Shown piece by piece: positions 2,790-4,309 of a stretch of DNA of 7,870 nt. How positions within the stretch are numbered: the stretch's first letter is position 1; every line of letters begins with the position of its first letter. Origin of the DNA: a virus (lineage: Duplodnaviria > Heunggongvirae > Uroviricota > Caudoviricetes). Under the pieces are notes generated by a model that saw only the letters and a program-made list of their open reading frames with translations, did no database searches and had not been told where the DNA came from. The translations under genes and the position numbers were made by a program. Where the stretch lies: IMG/VR virus record IMGVR_UViG_3300029490_000143; one strand, written 5' to 3'.

Positions 2790-2895
2790 AATGAATCCGT
2801 TGAAGCCTGCTTTTTTATACTAAGTTGGCATTATAAAAAAGCATTGCTTATCAATTTGTTGCAACGAACAGGTCACTATCAGTCAAAATAAAATC
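2790..2895. other. Lambda-type attL: 15-bp core plus phage P' arm with IHF-like and Int arm-type sites
   Basis: Core GCTTTTTTATACTAA at 2809-2823. To its right, TTATCAATTTGTTG (2848-2861) fits the IHF consensus WATCAANNNNTTR, and AGGTCACTAT (2870-2879) and CAGTCAAAAT (2880-2889) resemble Int arm-type sites. Host-like sequence lies to the left of the core and int follows on the right. Confidence 0.85.
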
Positions 2896-2896
2896 A

Positions 2897-3967
2897 TTAT
2901 TTGATTTCAATTTTGTCCCACTCCCTGCCTCTGTCATCACGATACTGTGATGCCATGGTGTCCGACTTATGCCCGAGAAGATGTTGAGCAAATTTATCGC
3001 TTATCTGCTTCTCATAGAGTCTTGCAGACAAACTGCGCAACTCGTGAAAGGTAGGCGGATCCCCTTCGAAGGAAAGACCTGATGCTTTTCGTGCGCGCAT
3101 AAAATACCTTGATACTGTGCCGGATGAAAGCGGTTCACGACGAGTAGATGCAATTATGGTTTCTCCGCCAAGAATCTCTTTGCATTTATCAAGTGTTTCC
3201 TTCATTGATATCCCGAGAGCATCAACATGCAATGTTGTTGGGATGGCAATTTTTACGCCTGTTTTGCTTTGCTCGACATAAAGATATCCATCTACGATAT
3301 CAGACCACTTCATTTCGCATAAATCACCAACTCGCTGCCCGGTAACAACAGCCAGTTCCATTGCAAGTCTGAGCCAACATGGTGATGATTCTGCTGCTTG
3401 ATAAATTTTCAGGTATTCGTCAGCCGTAAGTCTTGATCTCCTTACCTCTGATTTTGCTGCGCGAGTGGCAGCGACAGGGTTTGTTGTTATATGGCCTTCA
3501 GCTATTGCCTCTCGGAATGCATCGCTCAGTGTTGATCTGATTAACTTGGCTGACGCCGCCTTGCCCTCGTCTATGTATCCATTGAGCATTGCCGCAATTT
3601 CTTTTGTGGTGATGTCTTCAAGTGGAGCATCAGGCAGACCCCTCCTTATTGCTTTAATTTTGCTCATGTAATTTATGAGTGTCTTCTGCTTGATTCCTCT
3701 GCTGGCCAGGATTTTTTCGTAGCGATCAAGCCATGAATGTAACGTAACGGAATTATCACTGTTGATTCTCGCTGTCAGAGGCTTGTGTTTGTGTCCTGAA
3801 AATAACTCAATGTTGGCCTGTATAGCTTCAGTGATTGCGATTCGCCTGTCTCTGCCTAATCCAAACTCTTTACCCGTCCTTGGGTCCCTGTAGCAGTAAT
3901 ATCCATTGTTTCTTATATAAAGGTTAGGGGGTAAATCCCGGCGCTCATGACTTCGCCTTCTTCCCAT
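2897..3967 (-). CDS. int: Tyrosine recombinase, phage lambda-type integrase
   Basis: 356-aa ORF. N-terminus MGRRRSHERRDLPPNLYIRNNGYYCYRDPRTGKEFGLG and C-terminal catalytic region HELRSLSARLY ... LLGHKSDTMASQYRDDRG carry the R-K-H-R-H-Y residues; the Tyr sits at position 342. I recognise this as near-identical to lambda Int. It overlaps xis by 23 nt, as in lambda. Confidence 0.95.
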   Translation of the reverse strand: MGRRRSHERRDLPPNLYIRNNGYYCYRDPRTGKEFGLGRDRRIAITEAIQANIELFSGHKHKPLTARINSDNSVTLHSWLDRYEKILASRGIKQKTLINYMSKIKAIRRGLPDAPLEDITTKEIAAMLNGYIDEGKAASAKLIRSTLSDAFREAIAEGHITTNPVAATRAAKSEVRRSRLTADEYLKIYQAAESSPCWLRLAMELAVVTGQRVGDLCEMKWSDIVDGYLYVEQSKTGVKIAIPTTLHVDALGISMKETLDKCKEILGGETIIASTRREPLSSGTVSRYFMRARKASGLSFEGDPPTFHELRSLSARLYEKQISDKFAQHLLGHKSDTMASQYRDDRGREWDKIEIK

Positions 3968-4163
3968 TTCTGATCCTCTTCAAAAGGCTACCTGTTACTG
4001 GTCGATTTAAGTCAACCTTTACCGCTGATTCGTGGAACAGATATTCTCTTCCATCCTTAACCGGAGGAGGGAATATCCTGCATTCGCGCACCCATCGACG
4101 AACTGTTTCAAGGCTTCTTGGGCGTCGCTGGCGAGCGTTCCACTCCTGAAGTGTCAAGTACAT
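3945..4163 (-). CDS. xis: Excisionase, lambda Xis-type
   Basis: 72-aa ORF MYLTLQEWNARQRRPRSLETVRRWVRECRIFPPPVKDGREYLFHESAVKVDLNRPVTGSLLKRIRNGKKAKS, recognised as lambda Xis. Its 3' end overlaps the int start. Confidence 0.9.
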   Translation of the reverse strand: MYLTLQEWNARQRRPRSLETVRRWVRECRIFPPPVKDGREYLFHESAVKVDLNRPVTGSLLKRIRNGKKAKS

Positions 4164-4190
4164 CGCAAAGTCTCCGCAATTACACGCAAG

Positions 4191-4216
4191 AAAAAACCGC
4201 CATCAGGCGGCTTGGT
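4191..4216 (-). terminator. Candidate intrinsic terminator upstream of xis (hairpin CCGCC-TGAT-GGCGG followed by T6 on the - strand)
   Basis: On the + strand the sequence reads AAAAAACCGCCATCAGGCGG (4191-4210). On the - strand this gives a 5-bp GC stem, a 4-nt loop and TTTTTT. The stem is short, so confidence is moderate. Confidence 0.4.
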
Positions 4217-4309
4217 GTTCTTTCAGTTCTTCAATTCGAATATTGGTTACGTCTGCATGTGCTAGCCTGGTTGATAAAAAATGGTTGCGACTGGCAGCAA
4301 GGAGGAATC

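Follow-up and report, generated by a model that had tools for sequence, protein, structure and literature searches.

The DNA analyzed here is best understood as the left end of a lambdoid prophage at attλ whose centre has been deleted, and most likely as a transcriptionally silent, immobile fossil of that prophage. We put the probability of this reading at about 0.85. The window (the whole 7,870-nucleotide stretch, IMG/VR record IMGVR_UViG_3300029490_000143) is E. coli-type chromosome. The first-pass annotation had described positions 2790–4309 as an orphan lambda-type integration module, attL-int-xis, at an occupied attλ site. The module itself is borne out by an exact att core and by a 1,456-bp ungapped alignment to lambda. 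The coordinates given there are accurate. However, the module is not an orphan: one deletion joins it to ybcO, rusA, ylcG and Q (4310–5559), a nin/Q segment from the same kind of prophage. The region should be annotated as the attL end of a λB/λCr/Sp3-type cryptic lambdoid prophage, and not as an orphan recombinase module.

attL and the int-xis block

The features from the host flank to the 5′ end of xis are as follows.

16–1245, plus strand: ybhJ, 3′ part, host aconitase-family hydratase (open reading frame; ybhJ is annotated under the match in TOK-001 and Z226-5)
1479–2762, minus strand: ybhC, host gene, left chromosomal flank of attλ (Pfam Pectinesterase)
2809–2823, plus strand: attL core (O), identical to the 15-bp core of lambda and attB
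2824–2992, plus strand: P′ arm and adjoining DNA, identical to lambda 27739–27907
2897–3967, minus strand: int, full-length lambda-type tyrosine integrase, 356 aa (Pfam PF09003 and PF00589; alignment to lambda Int)
3945–4163, minus strand: xis, full-length excisionase, 72 aa (Pfam PF07825; alignment to lambda Xis)

Besides the 3′ end of ybhJ and ybhC, the host part of the window contains a cluster of REP-like repeats. The ybhC protein allele found here also adjoins both empty and occupied att sites in other genomes. The 15-bp core, GCTTTTTTATACTAA, has a single exact copy in the window (2809–2823, plus strand), 46 bp past the ybhC start; the chance expectation is 0.02 matches in the window with two mismatches allowed. 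The same core is present in lambda and in empty attB sites. To its left lies a bacterial B arm identical to that of an empty attB (fetched locus L014). To its right, the first mismatch to lambda falls at 2993, so the whole P′ arm is lambda-identical. The Int-binding feature “int 4” of the lambda record (27814–27854) corresponds to window positions 2899–2939, and the P′1–3 and H′ sites are taken as covered through this identity rather than through site-by-site mapping. Judged from its sequence, the region at 2809 is a true attL, a B-O-P′ hybrid of bacterial B arm and phage P′ arm. It adjoins the remaining elements of such a module, a tyrosine integrase and a Xis whose gene overlaps the int 5′ end.

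From the core rightward, window 2809–4264 aligns without gaps to lambda NC_001416 27724–29179, with 14 substitutions in 1,456 bp (99% identity). The first-pass annotation had reported a full-length Int with the catalytic R-K-H-R-H-Y residues, a full-length Xis and an apparently intact recombinase, and all three statements hold. Int has its arm-binding N-terminal domain and retains all six catalytic residues (R212, K235, H308, R311, H333 and Y342); its three substitutions relative to lambda Int (H164P, A245T and I248V) include no inactivating change. Xis differs from lambda Xis by one substitution, G59S, and the 23-nt overlap of xis and int is the same as in lambda.

The window Int is 100% identical to the Int of HK106, Huey, 2B8 and JEP4, all isolated temperate phages, as well as to that of REL606 and TOK-001, and it is one residue away from the Int of HK97 and 434. 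The Xis protein is identical across the window, HK106, HK97, REL606 and TOK-001. The exact Int protein occurs in 25,569 blocks of the assembly collection, and it is also carried by same-site prophages that still have a repressor, O/P and exo/bet/gam. At the nucleotide level, int and xis differ from their HK106 counterparts at 12 and 4 positions, respectively, and from those of the O157 EC4115 copy at 14 and 2; every one of these differences is synonymous. By these comparisons, the window Int and Xis are the alleles common in nature, as selection on functional phages has moulded them, and the laboratory alleles of lambda are the outliers. Because they are identical to proteins of viable phages, we infer that both are wild-type phage proteins that would work if made.

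The deletion joint and the nin/Q segment

To the right of xis, the lambda-type DNA carries two putative control elements, ends abruptly and gives way to a different part of a lambdoid prophage, followed by two insertion sequences.

4176–4189, minus strand: TTGC-N6-TTGC motif (TTGCGTGTAATTGC) at the position of the pI cII box, lambda-identical, just upstream of the xis ATG
4194–4213, minus strand: G+C-rich hairpin then a T run, upstream of xis, terminator-like (scan of the window)
4264/4265, no strand: deletion joint between lambda-type DNA and the ninE 3′ end (alignments to lambda and to ninE-bearing loci)
4265–4317, plus strand: ninE, 3′-terminal fragment (alignment to the ninE end in loci L022 and L001)
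4310–4600, plus strand: ybcO (DUF1364, putative nuclease), nin region (Pfam PF07102)
4597–4959, plus strand: rusA, Holliday-junction resolvase, nin region (Pfam PF05866)
4956–5096, plus strand: ylcG (named YlcG at the homologous TOK-001 position; PF26818 in relatives, no Pfam match in the window scan)
5182–5559, plus strand: Q, late-gene antiterminator, 125 aa (Pfam PF06530)
5641–6960, minus strand: IS256-family insertion sequence, 1,320 bp, between Q and the lipocalin gene (Pfam PF00872; alignments)
7043–7194, minus strand: prophage lipocalin (Blc-like) gene, 3′ part, cut by IS2 at 7194/7195 (PF08212, profile positions 95–146 only)
7195–7870, minus strand: IS2, from one terminus past the window end (96% identical to the annotated TOK-001 IS2; Pfam rve)

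The lambda-type side of the joint ends at lambda 29179, inside the lambdap35 homologue and 101 bp upstream of xis, and the window aligns to the ninE 3′ end from 4261–4265 onward (loci L022 and L001). Between the two sides there are 1 to 4 bp of overlap, the length varying with the ninE allele (some genomes have GCTA, L022 has GCCA). A clean 4-bp microhomology, GCTA, was considered and dropped once direct comparison revealed this allele dependence; an overlap of 1–4 bp is what can be claimed. So short an overlap reads as the signature of an illegitimate deletion. A 37-base query for the joint found no match in 5,426 complete E. coli genomes and none among GTDB species representatives. The joint was likewise absent from the 53 fetched loci, and the arrangement of the window was not seen in the contigs matched via the exact Int, ybhC, Q, RusA and IS256-family transposase proteins.

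The right side of the joint aligns to the ninE-ybcO-rusA-ylcG-Q segment of lambdoid prophages, and the exact Q protein occurs in 24,625 blocks of the assembly collection. The IS256-family element is flanked by an 8-bp target duplication, CATATAAC, at 5633–5640 and 6961–6968. The exact IS2-truncated lipocalin fragment had no match in the protein collection, and an Rfam scan of the window was without hits. We also rejected the idea of a PICI-like satellite, as genes for replication and packaging redirection are absent.

What is missing can be read from relatives with an identical Int, in which the 10 kb beside xis hold the ea genes, exo/bet/gam, kil, cIII, N, the repressor gene, cro, cII, O and P. 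None of the window's open reading frames is identified by the ORF list or Pfam as N, cI, cro, cII, O or P. The window therefore lacks cI/cro, O/P and N, the genes that mark a complete, inducible lambdoid prophage. The earlier statement that nothing of the early, immunity or replication region follows the module is correct for cI, cro, cII, N, O and P, but not for the nin genes and Q, which begin at 4310.

These observations suggest the following history. A lambdoid prophage would have inserted into attλ, in the ybhC-ybhB interval, and its central part would later have been deleted. One illegitimate event (4264/4265) would have joined the DNA upstream of xis to the end of ninE, removing the ea genes, exo/bet/gam, kil, cIII, N, pL, cI, cro, pR, cII, O, P and the proximal nin genes. 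The product, attL-int-xis followed by ybcO-rusA-ylcG-Q, would later have been hit by the IS256-family element and by IS2. Only the joint and the IS insertions appear to be specific to this lineage; the rest of the arrangement is already known and common. Indeed, the ybhC-attL-int junction is present in 1,920 of the 5,426 complete E. coli genomes (∼35%).

Expression control and competing explanations

In lambda, Xis is made solely from the N-antiterminated pL transcript, whereas Int is made from both pL and pI transcripts. The pI promoter requires cII, and its transcript begins inside xis, giving Int alone and no Xis. Recombination between attL and attR requires Int, Xis and IHF. The control that lambda exerts over these genes (pL and N for int and xis; cII-activated pI for int) is missing here: pL, N and cII are all absent from the window, whose lambda-type sequence stops at 4264. 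What persists is a stretch with zero mismatches to lambda (4135–4264). It includes the motif at 4176–4189, which, from established lambda biology, we take to be the cII site of pI. It also includes the hairpin at 4213–4194, which looks like a terminator against transcription coming from the right; the HK97 record annotates “terminator, putative” at the homologous position. Upstream of xis, a crude consensus scan of the minus strand detected nothing resembling a σ70 promoter. The missing expression control bears on whether the module functions, not on the family to which it belongs.

Under the proposed history, one deletion would have removed both divergent early promoters together with their regulators. 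The xis gene would be left without a promoter and with a terminator-like hairpin just upstream, int would be left with pI only, which needs cII, and ybcO through Q would have lost pR and N. Excision would then depend on a surviving attR and on a helper phage of matching att specificity that provides both Int and Xis in trans. The first-pass annotation had proposed that the int/xis pair could excise the remnant if an attR exists. Both proteins are indeed intact, but excision driven by the remnant itself appears unlikely, because the deletion took away pL and N, without which lambda has no route to Xis, and also cII, on which pI depends for its activation.

It is nevertheless useful to consider how the remnant could still be mobile. 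If int and xis were expressed at a basal level or by read-through, or if a co-resident lambdoid prophage supplied cII, occasional attL × attR excision would follow, by which the island could be lost or mobilized. We regard this as unlikely. In its favor, Int and Xis are wild type, as are the core and the P′ arm, and outward promoters that are weak or carried by the IS elements could drive xis and int at a low level. Relatives also retain the attR core, B′ arm and P arm beside ybhB. The remnants of REL606, TOK-001 and Z226-5 measure 12,090, 19,979 and 15,767 bp from core to core, respectively, and each has a second exact core and B′ arm about 100 bp from ybhB; the P arm in TOK-001 and Z226-5 is 88.6% identical to that of lambda. 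Against mobility stand the deletion of pL, N and cII, the hairpin that precedes xis and the origin of pI transcripts inside xis, which would leave attL × attR recombination without the Xis it needs. Moreover, any attR would lie beyond the window, which ends inside IS2, and an IS2 at this edge may mark a further deletion.

Defective prophages of O157 provide evidence on both sides. In O157 Sakai, several defective lambdoid prophages (Sp4, Sp14 and others) circularize spontaneously and excise (PMC2669165). Because such elements excise despite apparent defects, we can only infer that the present remnant is immobile. The Sakai prophage Sp3, which occupies the same site and lacks repressor and replication functions, did not circularize, though its integrase was scored as disrupted (PMC2669165). 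We therefore rejected Sp3 as a strict parallel for excision, the integrase being full-length in the EC4115 copy.

A related possibility, which we consider quite improbable, is that int-xis-attL has been kept because the module still acts, for example when lambdoid phages, whether co-resident or superinfecting, activate it through cII or read-through. If so, it could promote loss, replacement or helper-dependent mobilization of the island, or disturb lambda-type lysogeny at the occupied site.

We judge it very improbable that int and xis were kept by selection because the remnant serves the host, for instance by modulating the integration or excision of incoming lambda-type phages at the occupied site, or as a recombination landing pad. 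Such selection could account for the lack of any nonsynonymous change relative to phage alleles from which the window departs at 12 to 14 synonymous sites, and for the recurrence of remnants with identical Int and Xis in unrelated strains; an intact int and xis are also expected under selection for retention. The site also stays usable: in BL21(DE3), DE3 stands alone between ybhC and ybhB, replacing the λB remnant that REL606 has there. (A tandem arrangement of DE3 and the B remnant, which would have shown that occupied sites accept lambda, is contradicted by this record.) However, the synonymous-only pattern is fully explained by selection during life as an active phage, and the same alleles are found in viable phages and in same-site prophages with repressor, replication and recombination genes. 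Two amino-acid changes relative to the window have already appeared in the Int of Z226-5, and no expression signals remain here. Finally, the joint is unique to its lineage (0 of 5,426 genomes), and there has therefore been little time for decay. The intact state of int and xis thus most likely reflects a recent deletion rather than retained function.

That the xis/ninE joint is an assembly artefact, fusing two lambdoid prophages via a short shared sequence, is scarcely credible: lambdoid prophages are a classic source of misassembly and the joint is in no other genome searched, but an assembler would need far more than an overlap of 1 to 4 bp to be misled, the window spans an entire 1.3-kb IS together with its target duplication, suggesting a finished or long-read assembly, and comparable but different internal deletions are present in TOK-001, Z226-5, REL606 and EC4115.

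Related elements at the lambda attachment site and elsewhere

The ybhC-ybhB interval, the locus at which lambda attaches, has been called island-abundant (PMC9580842). It is the listed location of λB of E. coli B and λCr of Crooks (PMC3032704, Table 2) and of Sp3 of O157 (PMC8190617). In about one in three sequenced E. coli genomes, the lambda site is taken up by a remnant of this kind, which offers incoming lambda-type phages 1.5 kb of near-perfect homology. This is relevant to the engineering of lysogens and of attλ integrations in such strains. As strain markers, the joint and the IS insertions could be of use. Beyond correct annotation, the significance of the region is small.

The closest counterpart is λB of REL606, which has the same site, the same attL and identical Int and Xis, likewise without immunity or replication genes, and which differs from the window at 7 positions in the 1,456-bp lambda-homologous block. 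In λB, a few ea-side genes come after xis, with lysis and terminase remnants beyond them, whereas in the window xis is joined directly to ninE-ybcO-rusA-ylcG-Q, with two IS elements. Prophages of the Sp3/CP-933K type in O157:H7 also lie at ybhC-ybhB and are lambdoid elements without repressor and replication functions. The O157 EC4115 copy has an Int identical to that of the window and an internal deletion of its own, joining recT to ninE. Unlike the window, Sp3 is ∼38 kb long, keeps its morphogenesis genes and has a different deletion joint.

Among phages, lambda (NC_001416) shares with the window the core, the P′ arm, the catalytic residues, the pI cII-box motif and the hairpin upstream of xis. 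It carries P-O-P′ where the window has the integrated form B-O-P′, and everything from lambda 29180 to the ninE 3′ end, including pL, N and cII, is gone from the window. HK106 and HK97 have the same att core and an identical Xis, with an Int that is identical (HK106) or one residue different (HK97), but they are complete, viable phages. Their DNA differs from that of the window at 17 to 18 positions in ∼1,400–1,456 bases, and almost all of those that fall in int and xis are synonymous. Finally, DLP12 of K-12, at the argU site, has the same type of nin/Q segment (ybcO, rusA, ylcG and a Q-family antiterminator), as judged from the gene names that RefSeq assigns to the homologues. Unlike the window, DLP12 has another integrase and another attachment site.

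Independent losses at the ybhC-ybhB site

The central region of the prophage has been lost independently at the attλ locus. In E. coli O157:H7 EC4115 (CP001164.1; the locus fetched as L006), the prophage occupying this site carries an internal deletion of its own at 6027-6910 of the fetched locus. There, a recT gene cut to 215 aa, as compared with 261, directly adjoins ninE, so this prophage, too, lacks the block of early, immunity, and replication genes. Because this junction of recT with ninE is a deletion of its own, the central region was lost independently at this locus.

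The occupant of this site also differs between REL606 and BL21(DE3). In REL606, the 12-kb λB remnant sits between ybhC and ybhB, whereas in BL21(DE3) (NC_012971.2, 748396-791321) DE3 is the only element flanked by the two cores, and a separate remnant is absent. Thus, the remnant was replaced or lost as the DE3 lysogen was made.

Apparent recent arrival of the IS256-family element

Within the window, the prophage remnant is interrupted by the following insertion:

Window 5641-6960: IS256-family element, flanked by a target duplication at 5633-5640 and 6961-6968.

By sequence comparison, plasmid copies in Enterobacter, Citrobacter, and E. coli are 100% identical to this element, and copies on Acinetobacter plasmids are 99.4-99.6% identical. 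In E. coli, a near-identical copy is present in only one complete genome among 5,426. Two contigs, one of 3.0 Mb and the other of 3.4 Mb, also encode the exact transposase, and its gene neighbors there do not appear to resemble those of E. coli. The element looks like a recent horizontal arrival, and a plasmid was probably the carrier that brought it.

Another copy lies on a contig of an enterobacterial genome (GCA_026183595.1, 9743-13608), with arfA on one side, following the rpoA-rplQ-zntR region, and slt-trpR on the other. On standard E. coli maps, arfA and slt-trpR are widely separated. Since the genes flanking this copy are so far apart on those maps, the arrangement suggests an IS-associated rearrangement in that genome.

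Surroundings and right edge of the remnant

To the left of the prophage, the ybhJ-ybhC spacer (window 1250-1470) contains repeated palindromic units, among them copies resembling GCCGGATAAGGCGTTTACGCCGCATCCGGCA, of the kind that characterizes E. coli REP/BIME clusters. Among relatives, the distance between ybhJ and ybhC is 140 or 233 bp, depending on the locus.

At the opposite end, in the remnants of TOK-001 and Z226-5 and at other loci, the final gene ahead of attR and ybhB encodes a sensor diguanylate cyclase:

TOK-001 locus (L001) 35816-37147: sensor diguanylate cyclase (MASE4-GGDEF), just inside attR.

This gene appears to be prophage cargo still retained by copies that have decayed. The window itself ends within a second insertion:

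Window 7195-7870: IS2, interrupting the prophage lipocalin gene and extending past the window end.

Beyond it, the prophage could continue, or IS2 could mark a further deletion that possibly took attR. The remnant of TOK-001 also contains an IS2, but it occupies a different position, between ninE and ybcO, and the two copies share just 96% identity.
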